From an uncultured Rhodospirillaceae bacterium (GTDB lineage Bacteria; Pseudomonadota; Alphaproteobacteria; UBA7887), in the NCBI GenBank assembly GCA_964515905.1, contig CAZEWK010000089.1, forward strand, positions 13,719-77,718: a stretch of DNA of 64,000 nt, written 5' to 3'. A program made the position numbers and the translations under genes. Below, piece by piece: positions 9,984-53,484 of this stretch. The notes beneath the pieces were generated by a model, which saw only the letters and a list, made by a program, of their open reading frames with translations, did not search any database and was not told where the DNA came from. The first letter of the stretch is position 1. Each line of letters opens with the position of its first letter.

Positions 9984-10083
9984 GATGAATAAATAAAGTA
10001 ATTAGCATATTTGAGAACATGTGTAGTCTGAAAGTAGCCTTTAAGTCTACAAAAGATAAGTTGTATTTAGGGAAACAAAAAGT

Positions 10084-10941: not shown

Positions 10942-10989
10942 TTAAAATAGGATGGTTAAGCAGCAATAACGTTGAAAGGAATAGCTTAC

Positions 10990-11676: not shown

Positions 11677-11699
11677 CATATCACGTCCAGGACATAATT

Positions 11700-25267: not shown

Positions 25268-25772
25268 TCGCCAATAAATTGTAGTGGCCAACAACAAAGT
25301 CACTAATTGAACTTATGTCATCAAGATGGAAGACTGGCCGATCCGCATCCTCTAAAGGTAAATCACTCACGACGGCTAACACTCTTGGATCTGACACGTA
25401 AAGCGGATTTCCTCCACGAGCACCCCTGTAAACTTCGATCTTCGGATGGCTCTCAAATTTAAAGCCCTCAACCAATATCAAATCAACCGGAGAAATTCTC
25501 GCTAATAACTCATTGAGATTCGGCTCGCTTGAACCCCGTAACTCGTGCACTAATGCCCAACGCGAGCTCGAACCAATCATTACCTCTTGGGCTCCAGCCT
25601 CCCGATGCCTATACGAATCCTTTCCGGGCTTATCTATGTCAAAATTTTTGTGCCCGTGCTTGATTGTAGCTATCGTAATTCCCTTTTTTACTAAATTGGT
25701 TATTAGTCGTACCATCAATGTCGTTTTACCGCTGCCACTCCAACCCGCAATACCCAGCACATTCATGGTCAT
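25248..25772 (-). CDS. mobB: molybdopterin-guanine dinucleotide biosynthesis adapter MobB
   Basis: 174 aa, P-loop GIAGWSGSGKTTLMVRLI. Confidence 0.8.
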   Translation of the reverse strand: MTMNVLGIAGWSGSGKTTLMVRLITNLVKKGITIATIKHGHKNFDIDKPGKDSYRHREAGAQEVMIGSSSRWALVHELRGSSEPNLNELLARISPVDLILVEGFKFESHPKIEVYRGARGGNPLYVSDPRVLAVVSDLPLEDADRPVFHLDDISSISDFVVGHYNLLANDDGSA

Positions 25773-26344
25773 GTCCCTTGTGACTCTTGAGCGAACATAG
25801 TTTTAAAGCCTGTTTTCCAATAACTATAAGCGCTGGCCACTCCAAGGCCTGCTGCTAACCATATTAAAACCACGCCGAACAAGTAAACACTGCTTGAGAG
25901 CTCTCCTGAAAAACTTAACGTATGACTTCCAAACAACAACACCAACGCTAGGAACTGAATTCCTGTTTTCCATTTACCAAGAGCAATTACGGGAATTTGA
26001 ACAGCTCGTTGTCCTAAGTATTCTCGTAGCCCAGATACAAAAACTTCCCGGCAAATAATGATAAGAGATGGCAACAACGGAATGGCATCTTTAGACAATA
26101 ACAAGGCGATTGCAGCCAAAACGAGCATCTTATCTGCTATTGGATCTAACATACGCCCAAAATCGGATACAGCGTTTAGTCGGCGAGCGAGAATTCCATC
26201 TAAGTAATCGGTTGCACCAGCGGCGATAAAAATAATGCACGCCAACCAGTGAGGCCAAACATCTGTCAGTAAAAATGCTGCCACCAATAGCGGAATCGAA
26301 AGAATCCGGAGAATTGTTAATAAGTTAGGTAGGAAATGAATCAA
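25769..26344 (-). CDS. pgsA: CDP-diacylglycerol--glycerol-3-phosphate 3-phosphatidyltransferase
   Basis: 191 aa, NLLTILRI...DYLDGILARR...FGRMLDPIADK CDP-alcohol phosphatidyltransferase motif. Size and context fit PgsA. Confidence 0.8.
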   Translation of the reverse strand: MIHFLPNLLTILRILSIPLLVAAFLLTDVWPHWLACIIFIAAGATDYLDGILARRLNAVSDFGRMLDPIADKMLVLAAIALLLSKDAIPLLPSLIIICREVFVSGLREYLGQRAVQIPVIALGKWKTGIQFLALVLLFGSHTLSFSGELSSSVYLFGVVLIWLAAGLGVASAYSYWKTGFKTMFAQESQGT

Positions 26345-28800: not shown

Positions 28801-29232
28801 TCATGCTTCCCTTTCTTGCTGCAGTTCAACGCCAACAGTAGTGTCATTACCAAATACATCCAGTTTCTCAACTTTTATTTTGACAGAGATTACACGGTCG
28901 TCCTGAAAACAGAACATGACAATTTGCTCGGCCAAGCTCTCCACCAAATTTATATGCTCGTGTTGAACGATCTTGCGAATACCATTGACAACATCATCAT
29001 AACTTACAACTTCCTGAATCGAGTCCTGACACGGCACCCTGGACCTTTGAATATCGAGGTTCACACTGATCCGAACTCTTTGCGGCGCATCCAGCTCGTG
29101 TCGGTGGACTCCAATTTTACAGGGCAGCACTAGTCCATGAACAAAAAGCCGATGCCGAACTAAATTCGTCGTGGCGTCAGGGCTACAACTTGTTCCAATT
29201 TTCTCCCGATTGGCTAGAATGGGGGCCTCCAT
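28801..29232 (-). CDS. folB: dihydroneopterin aldolase
   Basis: FolB fold: ...VHGLVLPCKIGVHRHELDAPQRVRISVNLD... aligns to E. coli FolB. ATG at 29232 chosen; the longest ORF (TTG) starts at 29253. Confidence 0.65.
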   Translation of the reverse strand: MEAPILANREKIGTSCSPDATTNLVRHRLFVHGLVLPCKIGVHRHELDAPQRVRISVNLDIQRSRVPCQDSIQEVVSYDDVVNGIRKIVQHEHINLVESLAEQIVMFCFQDDRVISVKIKVEKLDVFGNDTTVGVELQQEREA

Positions 29233-29239
29233 ACTTTTC

Positions 29240-30004
29240 TTACTCCTTTGCAATCATGGTTGAATCGGATGGAGACCAACCAAGATGCTGGCCACCATCT
29301 AATGCAATCATTTGCCCAGTCATACTTTGTGCGCTCAATATATATGCTACTGCCTCCGAAATCTCTTCCGGCGATACTTTACGTTGCAACGGAAGTGCTT
29401 GCCATTGAGCACGAAACTCTCCCTCGGTTTGTCTAGAACTTGGCAAAGTCGGACCCGGCCCAACACCATTAACCCGTATATTAGGAGCAAGCGCCAGGGC
29501 CAAAGTTTGGGTCAAAGTCCATAACCCTGTTTTACTGATAGTGTAGGAAATGAAGTGCGGGGTCAGGTTCCACACTCTTTGGTCAATAATATTTATAATA
29601 TTGCCTACCTTACCATCAGGAACTTGATTAGCAAAAGTTTGCGATAACAGAAGTGGAGAAGTCAAATTCACACTTAAGTGTGCCTTCCAGCTCTCCGATG
29701 TCACAGTATGGATATTGTCGTATTCAAAAAGTGCCGCATTATTTATGAGGCAGCTTATTGCACCTAACCTTTCATGGGCTGAGTCTATCACACCCTCCGC
29801 CTGTCTCGAGTCCAACAGATTCGCAGAAATTGCCGTCGCTGTAGCACCTAAGCTTTGCAACTCAGAGACGAGCTCTTTTGCTTCCTCGCTAGACCGATGA
29901 TGGTGGACGGCAACGTTCCATCCCGCTTTTGCCATTGCAAGAGCAATAGCGCGCCCAATACGCGTCGCGGCACCCGTTATTAGAACGTTTTGAGTTATCA
30001 TCAT
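29240..30004 (-). CDS. SDR-family pteridine reductase (FolM/PTR1-like)
   Basis: 254 aa. TGAATRIGRAIA Rossmann motif and YTISK catalytic YxxxK. Closest resemblance is to FolM/PTR1, and it lies directly upstream of folB. Confidence 0.6.
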   Translation of the reverse strand: MMITQNVLITGAATRIGRAIALAMAKAGWNVAVHHHRSSEEAKELVSELQSLGATATAISANLLDSRQAEGVIDSAHERLGAISCLINNAALFEYDNIHTVTSESWKAHLSVNLTSPLLLSQTFANQVPDGKVGNIINIIDQRVWNLTPHFISYTISKTGLWTLTQTLALALAPNIRVNGVGPGPTLPSSRQTEGEFRAQWQALPLQRKVSPEEISEAVAYILSAQSMTGQMIALDGGQHLGWSPSDSTMIAKE

Positions 30005-33576: not shown

Positions 33577-34806
<1,230 letters not shown>

Positions 34807-34808
34807 AA

Positions 34809-36875
34809 ATGGATAAAGATACACCTATTCAGGTTAACTATTCGGCATGTCCTCATGACTGCCCCAGCACATGTGCTCTTGAAGTAGAGTTGTTAGACCA
34901 ACATCGGATAGGTCGGGTCCGTGGAGCTAAAGAAAATTCTTATACTTCGGGCATCGTCTGCGCAAAAGTGGCGCGCTACTCTGAACGCACGCATCATCCG
35001 GATCGTTTGATTTCCCCGATGCGTCGAAGCGGTGAAAAGGGAACCGGTGAATTTAAATCTATTTCTTGGGATGACGCCCTAGATGAAGTGGCCGAAGCGT
35101 TCATCCAAACGGCTCAAAAACATGGCTCCGAATCTATATGGCCTTATTTTTATGCTGGAACCATGGGTCTGCTGCAACGTGATGGCATCAATCGACTGCG
35201 CCACGACATGAAATATTCTGGGCAACACAGTACCATTTGCGTAACACTTGTCCAAGCCGGATGGAAAGCAGCCGTAGGGACCCTGCGTGGACCAGACCCA
35301 CGAGAAATGGCGGCCTCCGACTTAATTATTGCCTGGGGTGGAAACCCTGCTTCTACTCAAGTCAACGTAATGACCCATATACAAAAAGCACGGAAAGAGC
35401 GTGGAGCAAAATTTATCGTGGTCGATCCATACCGAACACGCTCTGCTCAAGTATCCGACATGCACCTCGCTTTGAAGCCAGGTACGGATGCAGCAATGGC
35501 CTGTGCGGTAATGCATGTACTTTTTCGGGATGGATTTGCCAACCACAAATATATGTCACAATTTTCGGATTGTCCCGAAGCCCTTGAACATCACTTGCGC
35601 ACACGCACACCCGCATGGGCGGCAAAAATCACTGGTCTGTCAGTCTCAGAGATAGAGACTTTTGCGAAATTGTACGGTCAAACAAAGCGTAGCTACATCC
35701 GAGTGGGATTTGGCTTCTCTCGCTCTCGAAACGGCGCGGTGAATACCCATGCTGTATCCTGCTTGCCAACCATTACTGGAGCTTGGGCTCATAAAGGCGG
35801 TGGAGCATTTCACAGTAATGGTGGCATCTATCATTGGGATAAAACTTTGATAGAAGGTCTTGACTGCCAGGACCCTTCGATTCGCCTGCTGGATCAATGC
35901 AGGATCGGACCAATTTTAACCGGTGATAAAATGGATCTAGCCAACGGGCCAGCAGTGCACGCCATGTTGGTACAAAATACTAACCCGGCAGTGGTGGCTC
36001 CAGAATCAGCCAAAGTGATAGAGGGCCTGCTCCGGGACGATTTATTCTTGTGTGTCCATGAGCAATTTGTAACAGATACTGCTAAATTTGCCGATATTCT
36101 GCTGCCCGCCACCACTTTCGTGGAACATAACGACATATATCAAGCAAGCGGACACCAACATATTACTCTTGGCCCGAAACTTATCGAACCTATTGGTCAA
36201 TCCCGCTCCAATCACAATGTAATCTGCGCAATTGCAAAGCGGGTGGGTGCCACTCATAGGGGTTTCAAAATGACGGAGTGGGAAATTATTGACGAGACGT
36301 TAAAGACCTCTGGTTGGGGTAGCGTTGACGCCTTAAAAGATAACCGTTGGATTGACTGTCAACCGAGTTTTAAGGATTCTCACTTTTTAGATGGATTTGG
36401 GTTCGATGACGGCAAGTTTCGGTTTGCTGCTAACTGGGCCGCTGAAGGGCCCGACCATAAGGCTCTACCGAATCTCCCAGACCACATAGAATTAATCGAA
36501 AAGGCTGATGCAGATCATCCATTCCGACTAGTAACTGCTCCAGCACATAATTACCTAAACACATCGTTTACAGAGACAAAAACTTCTATAGCAAAAGAAG
36601 TGAGACCGACTATTAAACTGTGTAAGGAGGATATCGCGCAATTAAATATGCTCCCTGGGGACAAAGTAAAAGTTGGGAACAGTCGAGGTGAAATTATTGT
36701 GCACGTTGACATTGCCAAAGATCAACAATCAAAAGTCGCAGTAATTGAAGGTATTTGGCCTAATCATGCATTCGAAAACGGGCTCGGTGTAAACACGTTG
36801 ATCGGGGCTGACCCCGGGCCACCGAATGGCGGCGGTGTTTTTCATGATGCTGCAGTTTGGATTAAAAATGCCTGA
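34809..36875 (+). CDS. molybdopterin-dependent oxidoreductase (MopB/COG0243 family) with N-terminal Cys cluster
   Basis: About 688 aa starting MDKDTPIQVNYSACPHDCPSTC (Fe-S motif). Bis-MGD oxidoreductase domains follow. Start abuts the upstream stop with a 2-nt gap. Confidence 0.8.
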   Translation: MDKDTPIQVNYSACPHDCPSTCALEVELLDQHRIGRVRGAKENSYTSGIVCAKVARYSERTHHPDRLISPMRRSGEKGTGEFKSISWDDALDEVAEAFIQTAQKHGSESIWPYFYAGTMGLLQRDGINRLRHDMKYSGQHSTICVTLVQAGWKAAVGTLRGPDPREMAASDLIIAWGGNPASTQVNVMTHIQKARKERGAKFIVVDPYRTRSAQVSDMHLALKPGTDAAMACAVMHVLFRDGFANHKYMSQFSDCPEALEHHLRTRTPAWAAKITGLSVSEIETFAKLYGQTKRSYIRVGFGFSRSRNGAVNTHAVSCLPTITGAWAHKGGGAFHSNGGIYHWDKTLIEGLDCQDPSIRLLDQCRIGPILTGDKMDLANGPAVHAMLVQNTNPAVVAPESAKVIEGLLRDDLFLCVHEQFVTDTAKFADILLPATTFVEHNDIYQASGHQHITLGPKLIEPIGQSRSNHNVICAIAKRVGATHRGFKMTEWEIIDETLKTSGWGSVDALKDNRWIDCQPSFKDSHFLDGFGFDDGKFRFAANWAAEGPDHKALPNLPDHIELIEKADADHPFRLVTAPAHNYLNTSFTETKTSIAKEVRPTIKLCKEDIAQLNMLPGDKVKVGNSRGEIIVHVDIAKDQQSKVAVIEGIWPNHAFENGLGVNTLIGADPGPPNGGGVFHDAAVWIKNA

Positions 36876-41831: not shown

Positions 41832-42563
41832 ATGTTTTCTAATAATTCTATCACCCGCAAATGCTTCTATTTGGCTATTCTGCTACTAACGTGTGTGGCT
41901 TGGGATCAACTGTATGTTTGTGCTGGGGTCGCCGAAGAGACAGAATCTGGCGGACAAGAATGGAACCATATCAAAACTGTGCTGATGTCGGCCGAATATG
42001 GAGGAAGATCCGGAGTTGTTGAACGCTGGAACCGTTCCCCGCTGATCACTGCCGTAGGCGCCTCAAAAACAGACCAGGCATATATTGAATCTCTCATTAT
42101 GAACTGGAATCAAATTCTAGCAGAAACACCCATTCAGCTAAAATATACGAATGATGCGCGCGCTGATATTGGTATAATCTTCGCGGATCGAGCAAATTTT
42201 AAAGAAATTTCTGCCATTTATGGCTTCCAGATTGTTGAAGGAGGCGTCGGCTTTGCGGGAACAATCGTTGACAACCAGCATCACATGAGAATGGGGCTAG
42301 TACTGATAGATAACAAATTACTCGATCACGAGCGTAAGGCAACGATCGCTCAGGAGCTCTATCATACTCTTGGACCAATAAACGACTCGCCGTATTTTCC
42401 AGCTAGTGTCGTATTTGAAGACGAGACCATGCCCTCCTCAGCAATTAAACTTGCGGATGTCGATAGAAAGCTCTTAAAATTTTTATACGCCTATTTAAAG
42501 CCCGGTGACCTACAATCGGACACGCGAGAAGCTTTTATAAAATTTTGGGATACTCTAGAATAG
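41832..42563 (+). CDS. secreted hypothetical protein (possibly DUF2927-like)
   Basis: 243 aa with N-terminal signal-like hydrophobic segment. No catalytic motif recognised. First gene of a three-gene plus-strand cluster. Confidence 0.45.
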   Translation: MFSNNSITRKCFYLAILLLTCVAWDQLYVCAGVAEETESGGQEWNHIKTVLMSAEYGGRSGVVERWNRSPLITAVGASKTDQAYIESLIMNWNQILAETPIQLKYTNDARADIGIIFADRANFKEISAIYGFQIVEGGVGFAGTIVDNQHHMRMGLVLIDNKLLDHERKATIAQELYHTLGPINDSPYFPASVVFEDETMPSSAIKLADVDRKLLKFLYAYLKPGDLQSDTREAFIKFWDTLE

Positions 42564-42601: not shown

Positions 42602-43432
42602 ATGACTAATCAAATGCGGAATAATGATAGCCAACCCGATTTGACAGGCTATTGGGGACATTTAACCACTACGGACTTTTCTACCTTAAACCCCGAGGAA
42701 ACCATTGCCCTACTCCCAGTAGCAGCCATCGAACAGCATGGGCCGCATCTACCACTTGAGACGGATGCATGCATAAGTGAAGGCTTGGTCAAAGGCCTTT
42801 TGGGCAGAAGCCATGATCGTCTAACACTCGTTAGCCTGCCGCCGATGGTTATCGGCGATAGCACAGAGCACATTGATTATTCAGGAACACTCTCAGCTAA
42901 CACCGAGACACTAGTCAGTCTGTGGTCAGGTATCGGCAAGCAAGTGGCCAAATCTGGCATTCAAAAACTACTAATCCTGAATACTCATGGAGGGCAACCG
43001 CAAATCGTGGACATAGTAGCACAGCGTCTTCGTGCCCAGGATAAAATGCTGGTAGTTGGGGTGAGCACCTTTAAGCTTGGCATTCCTGAAGGCCTATTTA
43101 ATACTAAAGAACTTCAGCATGGGCTACATGGGGGTGAAATAGAAACATCACTCATGCTCTTCCTTAAGCCAGAATTAGTGCGCCCAAACCGGGCAAACAA
43201 TTTTATTTCATCATCTTGGAAAATGGAAGAAACATACTCCCGCCTTTCGACAAACGGACCGGCTGCATTTGCTTGGCAAGCACAAGACTTGCACGAATTG
43301 GGAGTGGTGGGCGATGCAGCAAAAGCCGACGCCAAGCGTGGGTCCAAATTGTTTGAATTCTTGTTGGATGAAATATCTCTTATTTTGAGGGATATGAGAC
43401 AGTTCCCCATATCTGATTTGAAGAATGTCTAG
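42602..43432 (+). CDS. creatininase-family amidohydrolase
   Basis: 276 aa. ...AIEQHGPHLPLETDACISEGL... and ...LNTHGGQ...GGEIETS match the creatininase/ArfB/MftE family metal-binding motifs. Confidence 0.75.
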   Translation: MTNQMRNNDSQPDLTGYWGHLTTTDFSTLNPEETIALLPVAAIEQHGPHLPLETDACISEGLVKGLLGRSHDRLTLVSLPPMVIGDSTEHIDYSGTLSANTETLVSLWSGIGKQVAKSGIQKLLILNTHGGQPQIVDIVAQRLRAQDKMLVVGVSTFKLGIPEGLFNTKELQHGLHGGEIETSLMLFLKPELVRPNRANNFISSSWKMEETYSRLSTNGPAAFAWQAQDLHELGVVGDAAKADAKRGSKLFEFLLDEISLILRDMRQFPISDLKNV

Positions 43433-44246
43433 TCAGACTTTGATTGACGTTGAGGGTGCTTGGACGCTCCTGCTGCAATATCTAAACGGAACATCTCAAA
43501 ACATTTTGGACATCGACGAAACGGGCTCATGGAATATTATACGAGGCCTCTCAGACGCAGCCGAAGATTTAATCCGGTTATACGGACCCTTAGTTGCAAA
43601 ACAGAGAAACCGATCGCTGATTGTCGCGAATCTGGGACAGAGTCTGGACGGATATATCTCTACCAACAACGGTAACTCATATTACGTCACTGGCAAGGAA
43701 AGCATTATTCATCTTCATCGAATGCGCGCCTTATTTGATGCAGTTATAGTAGGAGCAAATACAGTTGATGCAGACAATCCAAAACTGACAACACGACTAG
43801 TGAGCGGCAATAACCCAACCCGCGTCGTTATAGACCCAAACCGTAAATTAAGTCCTTCCCACCAAGTGTTTACTGATGAATCAGTTGCTACTGTTTTGTT
43901 GTGCGCCCAAAACCTAAAGCAAAGAAATTATCCTGCTTTGAAGAACGTTGAAATTCTTGAACTGCCCAACACCGACGAAGGTATCTCTACTAAGGATTGC
44001 ATTGATGCATTGGGCTCACGAGGGCTACATCGTTTGTTCATAGAGGGTGGTGGCATCACCGTGAGCCGTTTTTTTAATGCGGGTGTCCTTGATCGGCTTC
44101 ATATCACCGTTGCCCCCGTAATGTTTGGCGCAGGCAAGGTCGGAATCCAACCCACGGCTGCAATAAATCCTGGTAAGGCCTTTCGTGGAAAGCACTGCAG
44201 AACTTTTCCACTCGGGGACGATATTTTGTTTGATTTCGAATTTTAG
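43425..44246 (+). CDS. RibD C-terminal-domain (pyrimidine reductase/DHFR-like) family protein
   Basis: 273 aa. ...IVANLGQSLDGYIST... and ...LFIEGGGITVSRFF... match RibD_C reductase motifs. Has a ~60 aa N-terminal extension. Overlaps the creatininase gene by 8 nt. Confidence 0.7.
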   Translation: MSSQTLIDVEGAWTLLLQYLNGTSQNILDIDETGSWNIIRGLSDAAEDLIRLYGPLVAKQRNRSLIVANLGQSLDGYISTNNGNSYYVTGKESIIHLHRMRALFDAVIVGANTVDADNPKLTTRLVSGNNPTRVVIDPNRKLSPSHQVFTDESVATVLLCAQNLKQRNYPALKNVEILELPNTDEGISTKDCIDALGSRGLHRLFIEGGGITVSRFFNAGVLDRLHITVAPVMFGAGKVGIQPTAAINPGKAFRGKHCRTFPLGDDILFDFEF

Positions 44247-44274: not shown

Positions 44275-45129
44275 CTACCAAGAAATGGGCCACGCCCACA
44301 AATCTGTATGCCCAACATCCAATTGAGAATGGCATTGCTCAATTGCTGTGAGTCGAAATTTCAACCAGTCGCGAGTTTCCTGACTTTTGTCCACCAGACC
44401 CATCCAATCTTTGATAAGTGCTGTTTGAAGATCCAAATCGGCTTTTCCCAATGCCCAAGCACTTGGGGCAGTTATAACGTCGTATCCTGCGTGGCGAAGT
44501 GCACACTCTAATACAGAGACAGCACGTGACCCAAGCCCCTCTCCAAAGCCTTTATCTCGACGTTGATCATAATTTAAGGCGTCTAGGACCAGTGAGTCTG
44601 TGGGGTGAGCTGGGCCAAAAGTTACACAGCCGTTGTAGTTCAGGCACGCGTATACACATGCTTGAGTCTCAGAACACCAATCTACAAACTTCATACACCA
44701 ACTAGCGGAGACCAGGTCTAAAAAAGCGGAAACAGTTACTAAATCAATCTCTGAAGGTCTGTCCCCAAAGCCTCTTGATAAATCACAATCATGGAAAGTT
44801 AACTCATAATCTTTGTCATCACCGTATATCTCTAGGCGATCTGGGGCTATCTTTGTCTGCAAGCCATTTTGTTGGCCCCACTTACAAAGGTTAGTTTTTG
44901 CTGCCGCAAGCAATGAGTCTGAGTGATCCATGAGTCTCCATGACTGCCCTAATCCCAAATAAGGGGCCAATGCCCGGATACAACTTCCAGTGCCAGAGGC
45001 TATGTCAATGGCCGAAATATGATCGAAGTGTTGTGACCAACAGTGCAGAACCGCTAATAGGTCTTTGTTGCGTGCACGAGAATCTGCTGGTTCACGTAAA
45101 TTTAACCAGTCAACCGTAAACCCACTCAT
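44275..45129 (-). CDS. class I SAM-dependent methyltransferase
   Basis: 284 aa, DIASGTGS motif I-like glycine-rich segment. Last gene of a four-gene minus-strand operon, overlapping the glycosyltransferase stop. Confidence 0.55.
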   Translation of the reverse strand: MSGFTVDWLNLREPADSRARNKDLLAVLHCWSQHFDHISAIDIASGTGSCIRALAPYLGLGQSWRLMDHSDSLLAAAKTNLCKWGQQNGLQTKIAPDRLEIYGDDKDYELTFHDCDLSRGFGDRPSEIDLVTVSAFLDLVSASWCMKFVDWCSETQACVYACLNYNGCVTFGPAHPTDSLVLDALNYDQRRDKGFGEGLGSRAVSVLECALRHAGYDVITAPSAWALGKADLDLQTALIKDWMGLVDKSQETRDWLKFRLTAIEQCHSQLDVGHTDLWAWPISW

Positions 45130-46271
45130 TAACCAACCGTCTCAAGAAGGAATGCCTCCATTTGGTAAACCACCTTTTCCCATGATCTTTGAGTCCTTCT
45201 GCAACCCCTTGCTCCCTCTGTCAAGCGGCAGCGCAACCGAGGTTCGTGAAAAAATCGACTTAATGCTGAAGCGAAGGCCCTACTATCACCGGCGGGAACC
45301 AACAAACCTGCCTTCTGAGGGACAGTCTCAATTATTGCTCCGGCGCTAGTCGCTACGATTGGTATTCCTGACCCCAAAGCCTCAGCCAAAGCCATCCCAT
45401 ATCCTTCATGGTATGACGCAAGCACGAACAAATCGGCGGACCGAAGCGCATCTCTCATTTTTGATACATTCAAGTTTCCTAGAAAATTAATTCTATCGCG
45501 AATGCCGAGTTTCGTAGCACAATTTTTCACTCGAATACTTGTTTGCTTATCCCTATCTAGATCACCTATACAATCTAGGTTCCAAGGAACCTCCTGAAGA
45601 GAGGCTAATGCATGCAGCAATACTTCATGCCCTTTCCGCGGTATTAATGTGGCGATACACAAAAGATTGAATGAAGCCTTATTAGATCCTATAGAGACAG
45701 GCATTTTCGCTATCCCCGGCTCGATAACCTCAATAGAAGCTGGATTCACATAGTACTCTTCTATTAACATCTTGGCAGTTACTGCGCTGGTTACCGAGAT
45801 CTGGGAACACACGGAAAGAGCCACCTGTTCTAACTTTTTAAACTGCAGTTGCTGAGCCAACGTTAGTCCAGTTTCCTCCGCCACAGGGTGATGAACTAAG
45901 GCGACTATCCTCAATCGTTTTGAAGCCTTACAAAGCTGACTTGCTAGTGGTGCCAACGCAAGCCCATCAATAACGACTAGACTATGATCTGGAATTTTTT
46001 TAATTATTGAATAAGCGTATTCCAGGTCATGGTCCGACGGGAATGGAAATCTTGCTGATAGGGAATGAAGACTCACATGCCACTTCTGGGCAGACAATCC
46101 GTTAATGATATGCTTGTCATAGATATACCCGCCTGTGAGAGCATCGATATTACCTGGTATAATGAAGTGTATCTGCCGCAAATTGTCTGCTCCTACACAA
46201 AACGAAGATGCATGCCTGTACCGAGAAGGTCCAACCGCTTGTACATACGCCCATCCGTCGGCCAACCTCAA
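45129..46271 (-). CDS. glycosyltransferase family 4 (GT-B, group 1)
   Basis: 380 aa. [20 protein letters not shown] is the GT4 E-x7-E donor-binding motif. Confidence 0.8.
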
Positions 46272-46675
46272 CCATTAAGTAAGGCACCTTCGTAGCGCGC
46301 CCATGCCACGTGTGATTCATGCAGTGTCACCGAAATCGCTGTCAGGCCTGAGGCATCCGCCCCCAAGTCTCCTTCACTAACCTTTTTAAATAATCTAGAA
46401 AATATCACTTCAGCTAGAACTTCGGTGGTAGTGTTCCGATCAGCAAGCGACGGGTCTTCATCCAAGTTTCGATAATTTAACTCTTCAAGGACCTCCGCTA
46501 AAGCGGCGGAAGCTAATCCAATATCTATCACCAAGCCGTTATTATCCAAAGTCGGTCGACGAAATTCAACGTCAACCACATATGTAGCGCCATGCAGGCG
46601 CTGCGCGGGCCCAAACACGGCCCCTTTAAAACTATGTGCAATCATAACATGATCGCGGACCGATACGGTGTACAT
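46268..46675 (-). CDS. 6-pyruvoyl-tetrahydropterin synthase/QueD-like protein with degenerate active site
   Basis: 135 aa. Aligns to E. coli QueD (AAHRL / IAHSF; CGRLHGHSF / AQRLHGATY; TSEVLAKWIW / [10 protein letters not shown]). The catalytic Cys and one zinc-ligand His are replaced by Ala. Confidence 0.7.
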
Positions 46676-46687
46676 CAGCCTTCTCCT

Positions 46688-47698
46688 CTAAACGTGATCA
46701 TCATACTGAGCAACGACCCCCGAATACGTCACACAATGACAAAGCTCTTGGTTGGTTGGCAGAGTAATTCGACGCATTGTTTCTGGTAGTTGTTCAAACT
46801 CACTATGGCCAGAAATCAGTTGATCCAGTATGTCGTCAGCAAGAAGATCAAGCGCCAAAGATAAACGTCGGCGATAATCCCAACGGGATCTCTGGGTAAT
46901 CCCGACCTGCCCAACTTGTGAAGATTGCAACCTAAGTCGCTTGGAGTGAAACCCTTCGCCCAAGGGTAACTTCACAGTTTGTTTTCCGAACCAACTCAAC
47001 TCTAGAATTGTCGCCTCTTTTCCCGCCAATTCAAGTGCCAGATGCAATCCCTCCTGCGACCCAGAAGCGTGAATCACCATGTCACCTGATCCTGAGGCAT
47101 TTTTGGCTTCAGAGAACTTAACGCCCAAAGCACTGGTAACATTTTTCTTACATGGATCGATATCGACCATCAGCACCCGGGTTCCTGGAATCTGGTTAAC
47201 GAGGTACGCTGCCAGGCACCCAATGACGCCAGCGCCAACGACTATCACATCTGAACCAATTGCCACCGGGGAGTCCCAGAGACCATTAATAGCAGTCTCC
47301 ATGTTGGCCGCCAAAATTGCACGACCCTTGGGGACATTTGCTGGGATCGGCACCACGGATTCCTCTGGCACAACGTAAAAATCCTGGTGTGGGAAAAGGC
47401 AAAAAACAGCCCGATTTAACAAACTAGCCGGGCCCTTCAATACAAGCCCGACATTCGAGTATCCATATTTCACTGGTCCTGGGAAGTTTCCCTCCTGAAA
47501 CGGAGCACGCATAATCTGATGCTGGCTGGCTGGAACGTTACCCTTATAGACCAGACTTTCGGTTCCCCGGCTAATACCACTAAACAGTGTTTGAACCAAA
47601 ACCTCCCCTTCCCGAGGCTCCACCAATGGTGTTCGGAGTATCTGACCGTTTCCAGGTGCTTGCACCCAAAACGCGTGGGCATAAAGGGCCGTGGTCAT
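46688..47698 (-). CDS. medium-chain dehydrogenase/reductase, BchC-like subfamily lacking canonical zinc ligands
   Basis: 336 aa. FSGISRGTE and YGYSNVG sit where Zn-ADHs have CxxC and GHE. GAGVIGCLAAY Rossmann motif. Confidence 0.65.
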   Translation of the reverse strand: MTTALYAHAFWVQAPGNGQILRTPLVEPREGEVLVQTLFSGISRGTESLVYKGNVPASQHQIMRAPFQEGNFPGPVKYGYSNVGLVLKGPASLLNRAVFCLFPHQDFYVVPEESVVPIPANVPKGRAILAANMETAINGLWDSPVAIGSDVIVVGAGVIGCLAAYLVNQIPGTRVLMVDIDPCKKNVTSALGVKFSEAKNASGSGDMVIHASGSQEGLHLALELAGKEATILELSWFGKQTVKLPLGEGFHSKRLRLQSSQVGQVGITQRSRWDYRRRLSLALDLLADDILDQLISGHSEFEQLPETMRRITLPTNQELCHCVTYSGVVAQYDDHV

Positions 47699-47846
47699 AT
47701 TTTGATGCTCCCTAAACGGGTTCTAAATCGAACAGAAAAGTATATGATTGCATAAACTACAACATCTTGCATTGCAGGAGTTACACTCTCCATTCTCTTT
47801 GCCTAGAGCCTAAAATGAGAAACCCCCTGGTAGTTCTACACGTGAA

Positions 47847-48611
47847 ATGCAGAAAACACGATCTTCCTTAACTAAATTTACTACTAGCACCATTTGTCAT
47901 TTGATCGCTGCTGCTGCAACGACTGTGCTTACCACAAAGCTATTAACGTTAGGGAAAAGTACTCAAATTTTTGCCCCCCTGCAGGTGCTAACTGTGTTTA
48001 TCCTGATAGTAGGTACAACACTCCTACAAGCAAGAAAACACCCGCTGCCAGACTCCTTTGGGATCGCCAATCGGGTTACATTATTCCGGCTCAGCTTAAC
48101 GGCCGTCCTCGCAAGTCAGATTGGCATCGCCGCAACCCTTCGCCCTAGTGAACTTTGGTTTTTCGTTTCACTGGCTGTAATCGCACTTTTATTTGATGCT
48201 GTCGATGGGTGGCTAGCCCGCCGCTTCCATATTCAAAGCACGTTCGGAGCAATATTTGATCTAGAAGTTGATGCTTCTTTCATACTTGTCTTAGCAATAA
48301 TAGTATTCGAACTTGGAAAAGTTGGGCCCTGGGTTCTTTTAGTGGGAGCCATGCGTTACCTGTTTGTGGTGGCAGGGTGGAAGATTCGTAAACTCCGGAG
48401 ACCATTACCTCCAAGCCGAAGGAGGCAAGTTATTTGCGTAGTACAAGCTATTAGTTTGATAATAATTTTGTGCCCTATTACTAGCGCCGCGCTAGCTACC
48501 ACAATTATACTCTTCTCCCTTCTGCTCTTACTTGTCTCATTTTATCAAGATATTTATTACCTCCTATCCACCGAACGAACCATGGAGGCGTGTTGTGGAA
48601 ACACCTCGTAG
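47847..48611 (+). CDS. CDP-alcohol phosphatidyltransferase family protein
   Basis: 254 aa. DAVDGWLARRFHIQSTFGAIFDLEVD is the D-x2-DG-x2-AR-x8-G-x3-D-x3-D motif. Multi-TM. A second family member beside pgsA, so substrate is unknown. Confidence 0.75.
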   Translation: MQKTRSSLTKFTTSTICHLIAAAATTVLTTKLLTLGKSTQIFAPLQVLTVFILIVGTTLLQARKHPLPDSFGIANRVTLFRLSLTAVLASQIGIAATLRPSELWFFVSLAVIALLFDAVDGWLARRFHIQSTFGAIFDLEVDASFILVLAIIVFELGKVGPWVLLVGAMRYLFVVAGWKIRKLRRPLPPSRRRQVICVVQAISLIIILCPITSAALATTIILFSLLLLLVSFYQDIYYLLSTERTMEACCGNTS

Positions 48612-49206
48612 GATTTATGTTGCCACCGTATTTTTAATAACCATTGCAACAACTTTTATCTTAACGATTACTAGTCTTAAAGCAGAACCCTTAGATTATG
48701 TGATCGACCCAGAGCATTTTAGTGTGGGCTTTTTAGTTGACCATATCGGCTATGCGAAAATCCTGGGGATGTTTTTGAAAGCGGAGGGGCGTTTTACCTT
48801 TGACGAGCAAGAACAGTCCATCACAAATCTGTACGTTCAAATTGATACCATGAGTGTATTTACCAATCACAAAAAAAGAGATAGCCATTTACGAGGTCCG
48901 GATTTTTTAAATGCACGTGAGTTTCCGGTGATGACATTTAAGGGAGACTTAATTGAACAAACAGGCGCTAAAACTGGAAAGATTATCGGTCCTCTATCTT
49001 TGATAGGGCAATCGTTTCCTTTAACTTTGGATTTTACCTGGAACAAAAACGAGATCTATCCGTTTGGACACCGTAAACCTACCATAGGTATTTCTGCACG
49101 AGGCACCTTCCGCCGAAGCGCTTACGGCATGAGCTATGCGGTAGGAAATGGATGGGTAGGCGACAATATTGACATAATCATTGAATTCGAGGCCTACCAG
49201 AAGTGA
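48532..49206 (+). CDS. YceI-family periplasmic protein
   Basis: Signal-like N-terminus plus YceI domain (DPEHFSVGF...TFDEQE...). Start uncertain: ATG at 48532 overlaps the upstream gene by 80 nt, and an in-frame GTG near 48594 is an alternative. Confidence 0.7.
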   Translation: MSHFIKIFITSYPPNEPWRRVVETPRRIYVATVFLITIATTFILTITSLKAEPLDYVIDPEHFSVGFLVDHIGYAKILGMFLKAEGRFTFDEQEQSITNLYVQIDTMSVFTNHKKRDSHLRGPDFLNAREFPVMTFKGDLIEQTGAKTGKIIGPLSLIGQSFPLTLDFTWNKNEIYPFGHRKPTIGISARGTFRRSAYGMSYAVGNGWVGDNIDIIIEFEAYQK

Positions 49207-49226: not shown

Positions 49227-50846
49227 ATGGTCAACTGGAAGAGATTTGCTGGGATTTGTGCCGCTTTAATAATCCTTAATGCGTCGCTGAGCTTCCACAA
49301 TATTTGGCCAACACCCTGGATCTACTTGAGGCCTGAATTATCTGTTGAAGCAGCAATGGTAATACTTCTGATATGTACGTATACCAGTGCGTTTAAAAAA
49401 TCTATGGGACAACGAATGCGACTTTGTTTGTTGATATTCGTTCTTATCCTTGTTCTTGGACGTTACCTCGACGTCACAACGCCTTCCCTCTTTGGAAGAC
49501 CTCTTGATCTCTATTGGGACGCCCAACACGTACCTCGCATTGTCGCGATGATTTGTGACGGCAGAACCACCGCATTTATTTTTGGAATAGGGGCACTGCT
49601 ATTGGCAGGTGCTGCTTGTATTGCTTACACCGCGTCATGCTCACTGCGCTTTCTTTGCCTATCCACAGAAACTAAAAGAGTCCGCATTGCATTGTCGTGC
49701 CTATCCCTTTTTATATTAGGACTTTACGCTGCAGGAATGGGCAATCGGAGCATTCAAACCGAACGATGGTTTTCTATTCCAGTAGGTTACATGTACATTG
49801 AACAGCTCAACACAATCTACGAGTCTTTGTACGACCATACCCCAGTTGAAATTGCCGCCCCTGCCCACATTAATTCGGACCTAGGTCGGCTACATGGTCG
49901 AGACATGTATCTGTTTTTCGTAGAATCGTACGGCTCGATAGTATTCGATGATGGTGAATTCATTCCACGCTTAAAACCAGCCATAAAAACTCTGGACGAA
50001 AATATGGAAATATATGGATGGGTGGCCGCGACCGGGCTTTATGAAAGCCCGACTTTTGGCGGGGCTTCTTGGTTGGCACACGCAACTTTGATGACAGGGA
50101 ATTGGACAAAAAGACAACAGGATTACAAAGCCCTGATGAGCAGCAAATTTCGTAGCTTAACAACATACTTCCAGGAGGCAGGATATCGCACAGTAGCACT
50201 TATGCCTGGCTTAAAAACACTATGGCCCGAGGGAACATTTTACAAATATGATCAAATTTGGAATGCCAGCCAACTCAAATATATGGGACCTGATTTTGGG
50301 TGGTGGCGGATTCCAGATCAGTACAGCCTGTCTTATTTATACGATACTGAAATAGCACTCTCAGACCGACCCCCATTATTTGTTTTCTTTGCATCTATTT
50401 CTAGTCATATGCCATTTACTCCGCTCCCCCCTTATGAAGAAGACTGGTCGCAGGTACTATCGGATTCTCCGTATGATATTGCTCATACGAACGTTGATAA
50501 TAGCTACTTGATCGAAGCAGATACTATGCGTCTCGCATACGAGCGAGCAATAAATTATGAGATCCATTTGCTAGCAGGGTTTTTAAAAAAGGTCGCGCAT
50601 CAAAAGCCTATGATAATAGTGCTCGGCGACCACCAACCTCCAGCAATAGTATCTGGGAGGAATACACCATGGCTGGTTCCAGTTCATGTGTTTACCCAGA
50701 ATACTGACCTTTTAGAACCCTTTATTGACATCGGATTTCGGCGTGGGCTTCTACCACCGAGCAACCCATTGGGACGTTTGAGTTTTTTACATAAAATAAT
50801 CCTGGAAGGCTTCGACACAAGGTGGCAAGCCAAAACAAATGATTAG
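49227..50846 (+). CDS. membrane-anchored alkaline-phosphatase-superfamily transferase (LtaS/EptA/OpgB-like sulfatase domain)
   Basis: 539 aa. About 5 N-terminal TM helices, then a soluble domain with LFFVESYGS and C-terminal IIVLGDHQPP motifs, as in phosphoglycerol/phosphoethanolamine transferases. Confidence 0.55.
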   Translation: MVNWKRFAGICAALIILNASLSFHNIWPTPWIYLRPELSVEAAMVILLICTYTSAFKKSMGQRMRLCLLIFVLILVLGRYLDVTTPSLFGRPLDLYWDAQHVPRIVAMICDGRTTAFIFGIGALLLAGAACIAYTASCSLRFLCLSTETKRVRIALSCLSLFILGLYAAGMGNRSIQTERWFSIPVGYMYIEQLNTIYESLYDHTPVEIAAPAHINSDLGRLHGRDMYLFFVESYGSIVFDDGEFIPRLKPAIKTLDENMEIYGWVAATGLYESPTFGGASWLAHATLMTGNWTKRQQDYKALMSSKFRSLTTYFQEAGYRTVALMPGLKTLWPEGTFYKYDQIWNASQLKYMGPDFGWWRIPDQYSLSYLYDTEIALSDRPPLFVFFASISSHMPFTPLPPYEEDWSQVLSDSPYDIAHTNVDNSYLIEADTMRLAYERAINYEIHLLAGFLKKVAHQKPMIIVLGDHQPPAIVSGRNTPWLVPVHVFTQNTDLLEPFIDIGFRRGLLPPSNPLGRLSFLHKIILEGFDTRWQAKTND

Positions 50847-53484
50847 TGAAAGTAAACCCCAGCAGGCCAACTGCGCTAGTATCAAAAACAGCCTCATTGT
50901 TTTCGCAACAGCGTTCGGAAGTCTAGTGGTATGGTACATTTCCCATCCCCATACCCTCATACCAGCATTCAATGACCAAATTAATGCAGTAGCCTACACT
51001 GTACAACAAAGATGGGAATCGCCTACGGATCAAAGAAGAAACCCAAAATCTTCAATCCAAGACGTCCAACAAATTGCTGGAATAACCGGGGCTGTCAGAA
51101 CTTATACGGTAAGCGGTGGCATAAAAGATTTTATCCAACAGGCAGAGAAAGCTGGACTAGAAATTATAGCTGGTGCTTGGACTGGAGTAGACTCCAAAAC
51201 TGATGGGAAAGAACTTTCCGCCCTTATACAGGTTGGGCGTTCCCAACATAATATTAAGCGTTTGCTAGTCGGAAACGAAGTTTTGCTTCGTAATAATCTC
51301 TCGCCTAGTCAGGTTCAAAAATACATCGAGGAGGTTCGAATAAAGACAAAAAAACCAACTAGCGTTGCTGAGCCATGGCATATATGGCTCGCAAACCCCA
51401 CACTAGCCGACAGCGCCGATTTCCTTGCTGTACATATCCTTCCCTACTGGGAGGGAATATCGGTCGAACAAGCAGTGCCCTACATAGATCAAAGATTGAA
51501 GCAACTTCAGAATACTTATCCTGGAAAACCAATTCTTCTGGCTGAGGTGGGATGGCCTTCTGCAGGGGATTCCCGCGGCGACGCAAAGGCTTCCAAAACT
51601 AATCAAATATTTTTTGTCCGCACATTTGCGGCGTACGCAAAGAAACATAACATTGATTACGTGTTGCTCGAAGCTTATGACCAACCATGGAAAGCTCACA
51701 TTGAAGGCCAAGTGGGTTCCCACTGGGGCCTGTTTGACGCACATAGAAACCCTAAATGGCCCTTGGCTGGCAGCCCGATTTACAAAAATTTATACTGGCT
51801 TCCTTGGGCTTTATTAGCATCCTTCTTTGCCACAGTCGCCCAGTTTATTTACATCCGCCAGTGGCCACAAATCAAGGTGTGGAAAGCTGTACTAATAGGA
51901 GTGTGCTTTCAAGCATGGGCTGTCGGGCTGATATGGCCATACATGGCACTGACCAATCACTATTTAACCCAGCTGGGTCTTATCGTATGGATCACCCTAA
52001 GTGTATCCCAACTTATACTATTTCTACTTCTTGCGACTGATTTAGTTGAATTTGTAAACGTACTGTGGCATCGGCCACATCGATGTCCAACGTCACAAAT
52101 TATAACCAAAGACATTGAAACCTACTTTGTGTCAATCCATGTTCCCTGCAGTGGCGAGCCATTTGAAATAGTATCTCAGACCCTTACTGGATTATCACGT
52201 CTTGATTATCCGAACTATGAAGTAATAGTGATCAGCAACAACTACCAATCTCCGGGTCGATGGAAACCTATTCAGAAATTATGCTTGCATTTGGGTCCTA
52301 AATTTCACTTCGTACATCAAGATCATTGTCCTGGATACAAAGCTGGAGCACTCAATCTTGCAGAAACTCTTACCAACGTTCGTGCTGAGATTATCGCTGT
52401 AGTGGATTGTGATTATGTCGTTGAACCTAATTGGCTACGAAGCCTAATGCCCATTTTTAAGAGTCCGGATATCGCCATTGTGCAGTCTCCGCAAGATCAC
52501 GTTGCTTCGAGCGAAAATAAGTTCCAAAAAAAATGTTTCTGGGAATATGCCGGGTTTTTCCAAGTTGGAATGATCCAGCGTAATGAGGCAAATGCAATAA
52601 TTCAGCATGGAACCATGACATTGATTCGCCGATCTGCACTTGCGCAGGTGGGTGGGTGGAGTGAATGGTGCATCACTGAAGACGCAGAACTCGGTCTTCG
52701 TTTGCTTGCCGCAGGTTGGAACTCCTTATATGTCCCCAATTCATTTGGTCGAGGCTTGTTACCATCCGATTTTAACGCATACAAAACTCAACGCTTTCGG
52801 TGGACATATGGAGCGATGCAAATTCTACGCCGGTTTGGTCCGGAATTACTCGGTCTGAGAAAGAGTCGTTTACGGATGCCGCAAAAATATCATTTCCTCG
52901 CAGGTTGGATGCCATGGCTAGCAGATGCCGTTGGTTTTATTTTTACGTTAGCAGCGGGTGTGTGGACGGTTACCATGATTATATTCCCGGACCAGTTTGG
53001 CCCCCCGATAGAACTATTTTTAATCCCAGTTTTAGTCGTATTTGTATTACGTCAACTTCGCGACTGGATTCTTTATGCAGTTAGGGTAAAGTGCTCCCTT
53101 AGGAACAGCCTATATGCCGCTATAGCAGGCCAATCACTAAAGTACACAATTGCCCGTGCAGTACTAACTAGTGTTTTTAAAAAAAACATGCCTTTCCAAA
53201 AAACACGAAAACAATGGTCTTTTTTAAGTCCTTTTCAGGCCTTGATGACGTCTGTCACAGAGACTTCTATGTTTCTAGCAATCTCCTGTATTTTAGTCGG
53301 TTTCTGTCTGCACTGTGATCTGAGCGACACAACAAATATATTGTGGATTTTCATACTAATAATACAGACAATGCCATACCTAACGTCCTTCCTAATGGCT
53401 TGCAGTGACGCCCTGTCTCGACGGCGCATGCCCCCAAACCAAACGGGGATTGCACAAATTGAATTACCTACCCACACTAAGTAA
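50839..53484 (+). CDS. ndvB: bifunctional GH17 glycoside hydrolase / GT2 glycosyltransferase (NdvB-like beta-1,3-glucan synthase)
   Basis: 881 aa. N-terminal GH17 motifs LLVGNEV and ILLAEVGWPSAG. Central TM helices. C-terminal GT2 with DCD, TED and QRFRW motifs. This matches the Pseudomonas/Bradyrhizobium NdvB architecture. Confidence 0.7.
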   Translation: MISESKPQQANCASIKNSLIVFATAFGSLVVWYISHPHTLIPAFNDQINAVAYTVQQRWESPTDQRRNPKSSIQDVQQIAGITGAVRTYTVSGGIKDFIQQAEKAGLEIIAGAWTGVDSKTDGKELSALIQVGRSQHNIKRLLVGNEVLLRNNLSPSQVQKYIEEVRIKTKKPTSVAEPWHIWLANPTLADSADFLAVHILPYWEGISVEQAVPYIDQRLKQLQNTYPGKPILLAEVGWPSAGDSRGDAKASKTNQIFFVRTFAAYAKKHNIDYVLLEAYDQPWKAHIEGQVGSHWGLFDAHRNPKWPLAGSPIYKNLYWLPWALLASFFATVAQFIYIRQWPQIKVWKAVLIGVCFQAWAVGLIWPYMALTNHYLTQLGLIVWITLSVSQLILFLLLATDLVEFVNVLWHRPHRCPTSQIITKDIETYFVSIHVPCSGEPFEIVSQTLTGLSRLDYPNYEVIVISNNYQSPGRWKPIQKLCLHLGPKFHFVHQDHCPGYKAGALNLAETLTNVRAEIIAVVDCDYVVEPNWLRSLMPIFKSPDIAIVQSPQDHVASSENKFQKKCFWEYAGFFQVGMIQRNEANAIIQHGTMTLIRRSALAQVGGWSEWCITEDAELGLRLLAAGWNSLYVPNSFGRGLLPSDFNAYKTQRFRWTYGAMQILRRFGPELLGLRKSRLRMPQKYHFLAGWMPWLADAVGFIFTLAAGVWTVTMIIFPDQFGPPIELFLIPVLVVFVLRQLRDWILYAVRVKCSLRNSLYAAIAGQSLKYTIARAVLTSVFKKNMPFQKTRKQWSFLSPFQALMTSVTETSMFLAISCILVGFCLHCDLSDTTNILWIFILIIQTMPYLTSFLMACSDALSRRRMPPNQTGIAQIELPTHTK

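Follow-up and report, generated by a model that had tools for sequence, protein, structure and literature searches.

The window analyzed here, by which we mean the whole stretch of 64,000 nt from contig CAZEWK010000089.1 of an uncultured Rhodospirillaceae bacterium, carries on its minus strand a four-gene operon that is the core of the local copy of a widespread gene cluster centred on a 6-pyruvoyltetrahydropterin synthase (PTPS)-like protein of the PTPS-IV (SCO6650) type. The first gene encodes a 336-aa dehydrogenase with the medium-chain dehydrogenase/reductase (MDR) fold (46688-47698), followed by genes for the PTPS-like orthologue of SCO6650 (46268-46675, 135 aa), a retaining glycosyltransferase of family 4 (GT4; 45129-46271), and a class I S-adenosylmethionine (SAM)-dependent methyltransferase (44275-45129, 284 aa). 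This head-to-tail packing, reported in a preliminary description of the locus, was borne out both by the open reading frames (ORFs) and by independent gene calls on metagenome contigs with an identical PTPS-like protein, which gave the same four genes. As read from the sequence, the dehydrogenase stop codon (TAG) is followed by 12 nt including AGGAGAAGG and then by the ATG of the PTPS-like gene, and the GT4 stop codon (TAA) has one base in common with the methyltransferase ATG (TAATG), both as described. The overlap claimed for the remaining junction hangs on the start of the GT4 gene. The earliest possible start, a TTG at 46271, overlaps the PTPS-like stop codon (TGA) by 4 nt and corresponds to 380 aa. 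This overlap is uncertain because the similarity to 75 GT4 orthologues does not set in before about residue 31 and because a ribosome-binding sequence (AGGAG) lies 8 nt upstream of another TTG at 46181. The gene may start there, which would leave a spacer of 86 nt after the PTPS-like gene and give a protein of 350 aa, the length of most GT4 orthologues; we treat it as the probable start.

Using the window proteins as queries, we searched 80 loci from Actinomycetota, Alpha-, Beta- and Gammaproteobacteria, Acidobacteriota, Gemmatimonadota, and Myxococcota; 53 of them have 10 kb of sequence on both sides (hereafter full-flank loci). Orthologues of the dehydrogenase are present in 77 of the 80 loci, of GT4 in 75, and of the methyltransferase in 66-68; the respective numbers for the full-flank loci are 52, 52, and 49. 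The PTPS-IV gene is flanked by the dehydrogenase gene, directly upstream, and by the GT4 gene in the same order and on the same strand as in the window. The methyltransferase gene follows this pattern in nearly all loci and lies elsewhere on the opposite strand in a few. The four-gene set is thus syntenic in other genomes, and its recurrence in 66-77 of 80 unrelated genomes confirms that the arrangement goes beyond chance. Synteny across at least five phyla, together with gene fusions, supports the earlier proposal that the four genes constitute one functional unit.

The fusions are of two kinds, and both support a functional coupling of the encoded proteins. A single ORF of 615-654 aa combines GT4 and the methyltransferase in five loci (L047, L052, L059, L064 (Halomonas/Vreelandella), L031, ~10400-12350). 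The second kind joins PTPS-IV domains to a methyltransferase: the C-terminal domain of protein P0400 resembles the cluster methyltransferase family, including its N-terminal motif (hhalign probability 92.9%, E-value 3.6e-7). This protein is one of six that carry three tandem PTPS-IV domains per chain (P0362, P0364, P0365, P0378, P0400, and P0411), the middle one being degenerate. The triple proteins have HGC in place of HGA and contain eukaryote-like low-complexity linkers, and the PTPS-IV pathway may extend to eukaryotes such as algae. Proteins in which PTPS seems to be fused to GT4 or to the dehydrogenase (P0504, P0508, P0483) were set aside, as their long Arg/Ala/Pro-rich stretches look like the result of frameshifted gene models. 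On one near-identical ENA contig with the identical PTPS-IV protein (L001), the dehydrogenase is split into parts of 152 and 192 aa (8973-9988) and the methyltransferase into parts of 93 and 200 aa (11547-12397). Both genes are intact on the JGI and Logan contigs, and the split is due to frameshifts in the assembly or else to gene inactivation in a sister strain.

The conserved unit is wider than four genes. It also includes a paralogue of CDP-alcohol phosphatidyltransferases and a RibD-type reductase, as well as other genes at variable frequency. In the window, the phosphatidyltransferase gene (47847-48611, plus strand; PF01066 E-value 8.1e-17) opens an operon that is separated from the four genes by a divergent intergenic region of 148 nt (47699-47846). 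The reductase gene (43425-44246, plus strand) encodes a pyrimidine reductase paralogue of the RibD C-terminal type, consisting of the reductase domain alone, and is convergent with the methyltransferase gene, which is also its usual orientation in other loci. Orthologues of this reductase occur in 57-58 of the 80 loci (41 full-flank loci) and those of the phosphatidyltransferase in 44, while an ORF with the CDP-alcohol phosphatidyltransferase motif was found in 46 of the 53 full-flank loci, in 36 of them with the window arrangement, directly upstream in divergent orientation. An apparent second copy of the phosphatidyltransferase in 23 loci was rejected, since it consists of antisense ORFs on high-GC DNA. 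A protein resembling the lipoteichoic acid synthase LtaS is encoded in 38-39 of the 80 loci (30 of the 53), a creatininase-family protein in 25 (17 of the 53), and a YceI-family protein in eight. Clustering of ORFs combined with Pfam models revealed additional recurrent families, namely GTP cyclohydrolase II in a short and a long form (28 full-flank loci), LPG_synthase_TM proteins of the MprF type (24), FkbM methyltransferases (14), and PlsC-type acyltransferases.

Of all the cluster proteins, PTPS-IV shows the strongest conservation. The window protein matches the Pfam PTPS model over residues 4-130 (E-value 3.3e-26), and its best PDB match is 3D7J, 'Uncharacterized protein SCO6650' (E-value 2e-48, residues 1-132). 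The preliminary description had aligned it with Escherichia coli QueD across its whole length, which overstates the similarity: the direct HMMER alignment extends over residues 23-95 only (E-value 2.7e-4), and the wider range is covered by the Pfam profile. With 42.4 bits against the NCBIfam QueD equivalog (cut-off 89.25), it is not a standard QueD, and neither queC nor queE was found near its gene. In canonical PTPS-I and PTPS-II proteins, the catalytic Cys belongs to a CxxxHGH or CxxxxxHGH motif, and zinc is bound by three His residues. Here, according to the HMMER alignment, Cys27 and His33 of QueD are replaced by Ala24 and Ala30, and Asp70/His71 by Asn67/Tyr68, and His14 and His28 are retained. 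The loss of the Cys and of one zinc ligand had been observed in the window protein, and we found it to be family-wide, with Ala24 and Ala30 at least 98% conserved in 72 sequences. The FGPAQ signature, which characterizes PTPS-IV and takes the place of the Cys-containing motif of PTPS-I/II (PMC5445326), is present, and its residues F21, G22, P23, and A24 are at least 98% conserved. Judged by these features, the protein is a member of the PTPS-IV subfamily of COG0720, a named group with a solved structure, and not an isolated oddity.

This subfamily is large and uniform. More than 8000 database clusters match it, with 52 representatives (50% identity level) at E-values of 1e-30 or below. Relatives are encoded by the genomes of at least 572 species, and the identity across phyla is 61-69%. 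Among the 72 sequences, 38 of the 135 residues are at least 98% conserved. The Thr and Glu positions that bind the pterin ring are kept (T82, T84, E85, E120), and a new set of polar invariants has been added (R7, H9, D35, D44, D51, N70, D72, S121, H122). Such a conservation pattern fits an enzyme with an altered mechanism better than a decaying scaffold. Spoonamore et al. reportedly found in 2008 that SCO6650 contains no zinc and has no PTPS activity. According to one publication, which refers to unpublished data, PTPS-IV takes part in F420 synthesis (PMC5041015). Our literature search, made with limited access, returned only two papers that mention PTPS-IV by name, neither of which gives it a tested function, and no link of it to lipid genes. 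Nor did it return any work that treats PTPS together with creatininase, with GTP cyclohydrolase II, or with CDP-alcohol phosphatidyltransferase, in agreement with the earlier statement that the gene combination maps to no described pathway.

The dehydrogenase reaches the threshold of none of the Pfam MDR models, and matches the BchC model TIGR01202 weakly over residues 24-248 (43.2 bits, cut-off 291.25); bch or other photosynthesis genes were not found in the window region. Its AlphaFold model (pLDDT 90.8) has the two-domain MDR fold with the Rossmann GxGxxG motif. The best PDB matches of the model are polyol and sugar-alcohol MDRs (TM-scores 0.74-0.78), including L-idonate 5-dehydrogenase, sorbitol and butanediol dehydrogenases, and the ribulose-5-phosphate reductase TarJ. 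As pointed out previously, the canonical zinc ligands are lacking: the segments SGISRGTE and KYGYSN, which are invariant in the orthologues, replace the Cys and His-Glu of zinc-dependent MDRs. At the catalytic ligand positions, assigned by motif comparison, Ser43 and Tyr80-Ser81 are found as invariant or near-invariant residues. Other invariant positions include G45, E47, Y78-G79, H104, and Asp179. An Asp after GxGxxG in MDRs favours NAD over NADP, and this is the position of Asp179, from which we infer that the dehydrogenase is of the NAD type.

The GT4 protein matches PF00534 (Glycos_transf_1) with an E-value of 1.2e-28 and has the E-x7-E motif, with Glu259 and Glu267 (numbered from the 46181 start) being invariant. 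In profile comparisons with solved enzymes, it is closest to the sucrose-phosphate synthase (SPS) Tll1590 (E-value 5.4e-45) and to MshA (3.7e-37), followed at a distance by the tetrahydrobiopterin glucosyltransferase BGluT (3.7e-14); it is mainly the donor domain that resembles MshA and SPS. Its best NCBIfam E-values are to glycosyltransferases of exopolysaccharide (EPS) and lipopolysaccharide (LPS) synthesis, all of them far below cut-off, and it corresponds to no EPS or LPS equivalog. The methyltransferase has a weak match to Pfam Methyltransf_12 and a family-specific N-terminal motif, W-L-x-L-R-E-P-x-D. Its structural model (pLDDT 96.9) shows a generic class I fold of small-molecule methyltransferases (TM-score up to 0.61), and its nearest relatives come from metagenome-assembled genomes of marine Alphaproteobacteria.

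Two further components may connect the cluster with GTP-derived pyrimidines. The RibD-type reductase matches Pfam RibD_C with an E-value of 1.6e-37 and stays below the cut-offs of all NCBIfam reductase models; E. coli RibD matches 53 loci, solely through its reductase half. The creatininase-family metal-dependent amidohydrolase (42602-43432, plus strand), whose gene overlaps the reductase gene by 8 nt, matches PF02633 with 207 bits (E-value 3e-61) and remains below the cut-offs for creatininase, MftE, IolN, and ArfB. GTP cyclohydrolase I (FolE), RibB, RibH, and FO synthase were found in none of the 80 loci. Since the cluster is linked with GTP cyclohydrolase II, a RibD-type reductase, and creatininase, and not with GTP cyclohydrolase I, the starting material is more likely a diaminopyrimidine nucleotide of the riboflavin type than dihydroneopterin triphosphate. 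A previous survey of 561 PTPS-IV sequences reported neighbourhoods with PF00925 and PF01872 (PMC5445326). In that work PF00925 was labelled 'GTP cyclohydrolase I / FolE2', whereas the Pfam model represents GTP cyclohydrolase II (RibA type), which changes the biochemical reading of the neighbourhood.

The cyclohydrolases of the clusters differ at the residue aligned with Tyr105 of E. coli RibA. It is His in eight and Met in one of them, and all nine such clusters include creatininase. Among clusters with a Tyr-type cyclohydrolase, creatininase is present in none of the 16 with the short form and in 11 of the 12 with the long form. These distributions partly support an ArfB-like deformylase role for the creatininase homologue. 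SCO6655, encoded near SCO6650, is said to have been described by Spoonamore et al. in 2006 as a GTP cyclohydrolase II paralogue that, owing to a Met in place of a Tyr, halts at the formylated product, the formamidopyrimidine (FAPy). The long cyclohydrolases (~370-420 aa; L014, L047, L052, L059, and others) have an N-terminal extension of ~190 aa without a Pfam match, located at the position of the DHBP synthase domain in RibBA.

Lipid chemistry is suggested by the divergent operon. In the cluster phosphatidyltransferase, the motif D-x2-D-G-x2-A-R-x8-G-x3-D-x3-D is intact (DAVDGWLARRFHIQSTFGAIFDLEVD). The nearest NCBIfam models are CDP-diacylglycerol-dependent enzymes accepting polyol phosphates, all matched below the equivalog cut-off (28.4 bits for PgsA, TIGR00560, with a cut-off of 109.1). 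The true housekeeping pgsA is located at 25769-26344 on the minus strand (146.3 bits for TIGR00560), where uvrC, mobB, and moeA are its neighbours, and for this reason we consider the cluster enzyme an extra paralogue; the two proteins have only the catalytic motif in common. Genes moeA and mobB (23981-25772, minus strand) and a molybdopterin oxidoreductase (34788-36875, plus strand) represent unrelated pterin chemistry in the window.

The product of the gene at 49227-50846 (plus strand), a member of the alkaline phosphatase superfamily annotated as a 'sulfatase', has a weak match to PF00884 (30.8 bits, cut-off 25; E-value 2.3e-7) and lacks the sulfatase motif CxPxR; for its family, no PDB match was found by profile search. 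The N-terminal 200 aa are hydrophobic, and the invariant residues include E233, T276 (in SPTFGG), and D468-H469. We infer that it is a membrane-anchored head-group transferase of the LtaS/EptA/OpgB type and not a sulfatase. It resembles these enzymes in the membrane anchor, the Glu, the Thr nucleophile, and the Asp-His pair, and also in being paired with an enzyme that would make the lipid donor. Both this enzyme and the phosphatidyltransferase went unnoticed in the preliminary description; their conservation suggests that the product is linked to lipid. A gene for an 881-aa fusion of glycoside hydrolase family 17 (GH17) and glycosyltransferase family 2 (GT2) domains (50839-53484, plus strand) overlaps the LtaS-like gene by 8 nt and is translationally coupled to it. 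Its GT2 part is similar to cellulose and poly-N-acetylglucosamine (PNAG) synthases, and the protein resembles cyclic beta-glucan synthases; the LtaS-like enzyme might decorate a periplasmic glucan in the source organism.

We propose that the cluster makes a GTP-derived glycoside of the pyrimidine or pterin type that is linked to the membrane, and we assign a probability of roughly 0.4 to this general scheme, as distinct from its single steps. The chemistry, assigned to the observed gene content, conservation, and arrangement by analogy with characterized families, would run as follows. GTP cyclohydrolase II would convert GTP into 2,5-diamino-6-ribosylamino-4(3H)-pyrimidinone 5'-phosphate, and the His/Met 'switch' cyclohydrolases would yield the 5-formyl form instead, to be deformylated by the creatininase-family hydrolase in the manner of archaeal ArfB. 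The RibD-type reductase would turn the ribosylamino into a ribitylamino group, and the 2-amino group would be kept because no deaminase is present. The polyol phosphate could then be tailored by the zinc-less, NAD-type MDR, which is similar to polyol dehydrogenases, and by PTPS-IV, which would hold the 2-amino-4-oxopyrimidine ring with its kept residues and has the new invariant polar set besides. For instance, the 2' position could be oxidized and the ring then closed to give a dihydropterin, by a route that bypasses GTP cyclohydrolase I. GT4 would add a sugar and the methyltransferase a methyl group, the phosphatidyltransferase would couple the polyol (phosphate) to CDP-diacylglycerol, and the LtaS-like enzyme or a flippase-like/MprF-like protein would act on the head group at the outer face of the membrane. 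In its boldest and rather doubtful form, this proposal envisages a new class of membrane phospholipids or glycolipids with a ribitylamino-pyrimidine or pterin glycoside derived from GTP as the head group, displayed on the membrane or moved to envelope polymers by the LtaS-like enzyme, in at least five phyla and possibly algae.

Several observations weigh against a membrane-linked, GTP-derived product. The lipid genes form a separate, divergent transcription unit, which may have been conserved next to the operon on other grounds, and 23 of the 53 full-flank loci (~40%) have no LtaS-like gene. No GTP cyclohydrolase II gene lies within the 64-kb window, and the enzyme occurs in only about half of the full-flank loci. 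The correlation between the switch residue and creatininase comes from few lineages; because 11 of the 12 clusters with long Tyr-type cyclohydrolases also carry creatininase, deformylation may not be its only role, or may not be its role at all. The acceptor of GT4 is not deducible from the matches to MshA and SPS, since the similarity resides mainly in the donor domain, and the fold of the methyltransferase points to no substrate class. Finally, the published link of PTPS-IV to F420 (PMC5041015, on unpublished data) is not explained by a lipid scheme.

Some of these points favour a soluble cofactor or secondary metabolite derived from GTP, such as a glycoside of the riboflavin, deazaflavin, or pyrimidine type, with the phosphatidyltransferase and the LtaS-like protein as a separate travelling module. 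We regard this explanation as unlikely on the whole, yet as the one that survives best among the alternatives. It accommodates the statement about F420, the divergent transcription of the lipid genes, and the loci without an LtaS-like gene, and the combination of GTP cyclohydrolase II, RibD_C, and creatininase mirrors the archaeal ArfA/ArfB/ArfC steps toward riboflavin and F420. Against it stands the conservation of the phosphatidyltransferase-motif ORF, which equals that of the methyltransferase and extends across phyla to its position directly upstream of the operon. Moreover, actinobacterial versions add an MprF-type membrane protein and some of them an acyltransferase, and none of the loci encodes FO synthase, RibH, or RibB.

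An explanation along the lines of the preliminary description, a pterin glycoside of the biopterin or neopterin type made from dihydroneopterin triphosphate through PTPS chemistry, then glycosylated and methylated, with the aid of FolB, a pteridine reductase, and a pterin-carbinolamine dehydratase (PCD) encoded elsewhere in the window, now appears improbable. The PTPS fold with its retained pterin-ring-binding Thr and Glu residues, the adjacent genes for GT4 and the methyltransferase, and the detectable relationship of GT4 to the tetrahydrobiopterin glucosyltransferase are all in line with it. However, throughout the family other residues stand in for the catalytic Cys, for the Asp-His pair, and for one of the zinc-binding His, GTP cyclohydrolase I is absent from all 80 loci as opposed to the 28 full-flank loci with GTP cyclohydrolase II, and the pteridine glucosyltransferase is a much more distant relative of GT4 than MshA and SPS are. 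The proposed connection with the other pterin genes of the window was not supported either. FolB and PCD were found near PTPS-IV in none of the 80 loci, and in the window these genes lie 15 kb (folB with the reductase) and 8 kb (PCD) away in a housekeeping context. The folB gene and the gene for a short-chain dehydrogenase/reductase (SDR), whose best models are PRK09134 and then pteridine reductase, overlap by 14 nt at 28801-30004 on the minus strand, between uvrB and uvrC.

Least plausible is a generic operon for envelope polysaccharide synthesis or LPS decoration by GT4 and the methyltransferase, with the PTPS-like protein as a non-catalytic scaffold: the best NCBIfam E-values of GT4, the continuation of the divergent operon into the GH17-GT2 gene, and the lost PTPS catalytic residues would agree with it, but the conserved neighbours of the set include no genes for polysaccharide export or polymerases, the GH17-GT2 fusion recurs in none of the 80 loci, PTPS-IV with its new polar invariants is unlike a decaying scaffold, and enzymes of pyrimidine nucleotides are consistently associated.

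Other neighbours are specific to the window copy. The gene of a YceI-family periplasmic lipid-binding protein (48595-49206, plus strand; 203-aa gene call; Pfam YceI E-value 1.8e-33) is located between the phosphatidyltransferase and LtaS-like genes, and its association with the cluster is weak, as the eight loci mentioned above indicate. A DUF2927 protein with a hydrophobic N-terminus (41832-42563, plus strand) is encoded 38 nt upstream of the creatininase-reductase pair and has no counterpart in the 80 loci. A search for riboswitches and other RNAs with Rfam gave no match in the window or the cluster even at relaxed thresholds, and the promoter and terminator sites scanned in the region were not in excess over shuffled sequences. 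None of the eight cluster proteins matched PADLOC models of defence systems, such as 7-deazaguanine DNA modification.

The structure of SCO6650 has been available since the late 2000s, and the cluster is present in hundreds of soil, marine, and halophilic species. The conserved unit is larger than described before: besides enzymes for GTP chemistry of the riboflavin type, it comprises a glycosyltransferase and a methyltransferase as well as a phosphatidyltransferase of its own. If the product were a lipid with a pterin or pyrimidine head group, it would represent a new bacterial membrane component and a new fate for an intermediate of the riboflavin pathway.

Comparison with known systems places the cluster between several established pathways. 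The archaeal route by ArfA (GTP cyclohydrolase III), ArfB, and ArfC uses the same families for its second and third steps (creatininase family and RibD_C). In PTPS-IV clusters, the switch residue of the cyclohydrolase co-varies with the presence of the hydrolase, and the lack of a deaminase domain matches the archaeal order of reactions. In contrast, the window proteins score 21 against a cut-off of 180 for ArfB and 109 against 186 for the archaeal reductase equivalog, and the downstream enzymes are an MDR, PTPS-IV, GT4, and a methyltransferase instead of lumazine or FO synthases. The pteridine glycoside systems of cyanobacteria and Chlorobium, which consist of PTPS and a UDP-glucose:tetrahydrobiopterin glucosyltransferase, likewise have a PTPS-fold protein beside a related GT-B enzyme. 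They differ from the PTPS-IV cluster, which has neither the PTPS catalytic apparatus nor a link to GTP cyclohydrolase I, is conserved together with a lipid-synthesis module, and includes a GT4 nearer to MshA and SPS.

In the synthesis of phosphatidylinositol, phosphatidylinositol mannosides (PIM), and mycothiol, where PIP synthase or PgsA acts on a polyol phosphate, a similar set of enzymes is encountered: a CDP-alcohol phosphatidyltransferase, a GT4 (cf. PimA and MshA), and sometimes a PlsC-type acyltransferase occur together in PTPS-IV loci. However, the cluster has no inositol-phosphate synthase, and the proposed ribitylamino-pyrimidine or pterin phosphate acceptor is hypothetical. BchC (3-hydroxyethyl bacteriochlorophyllide a dehydrogenase) shows the same kind of zinc-site replacement as the dehydrogenase (G-I-S-x-G-T-E), while the orthologues of the latter are found in non-phototrophs, e.g. 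Micromonospora and Halomonas. The closest counterparts are the SCO6650/PTPS-IV loci of Streptomyces, with the order dehydrogenase, PTPS-IV, GT4, methyltransferase, membrane protein, creatininase, and GTP cyclohydrolase II. The window copy agrees with them in its core, and the RibD_C reductase adjoins it as in reported PTPS-IV neighbourhoods; it differs in lacking the MprF-like membrane protein of the actinobacterial versions and the GTP cyclohydrolase II gene. The window cluster is thus a further member of a known cluster family, and the association of this family with lipid genes appears to be new.

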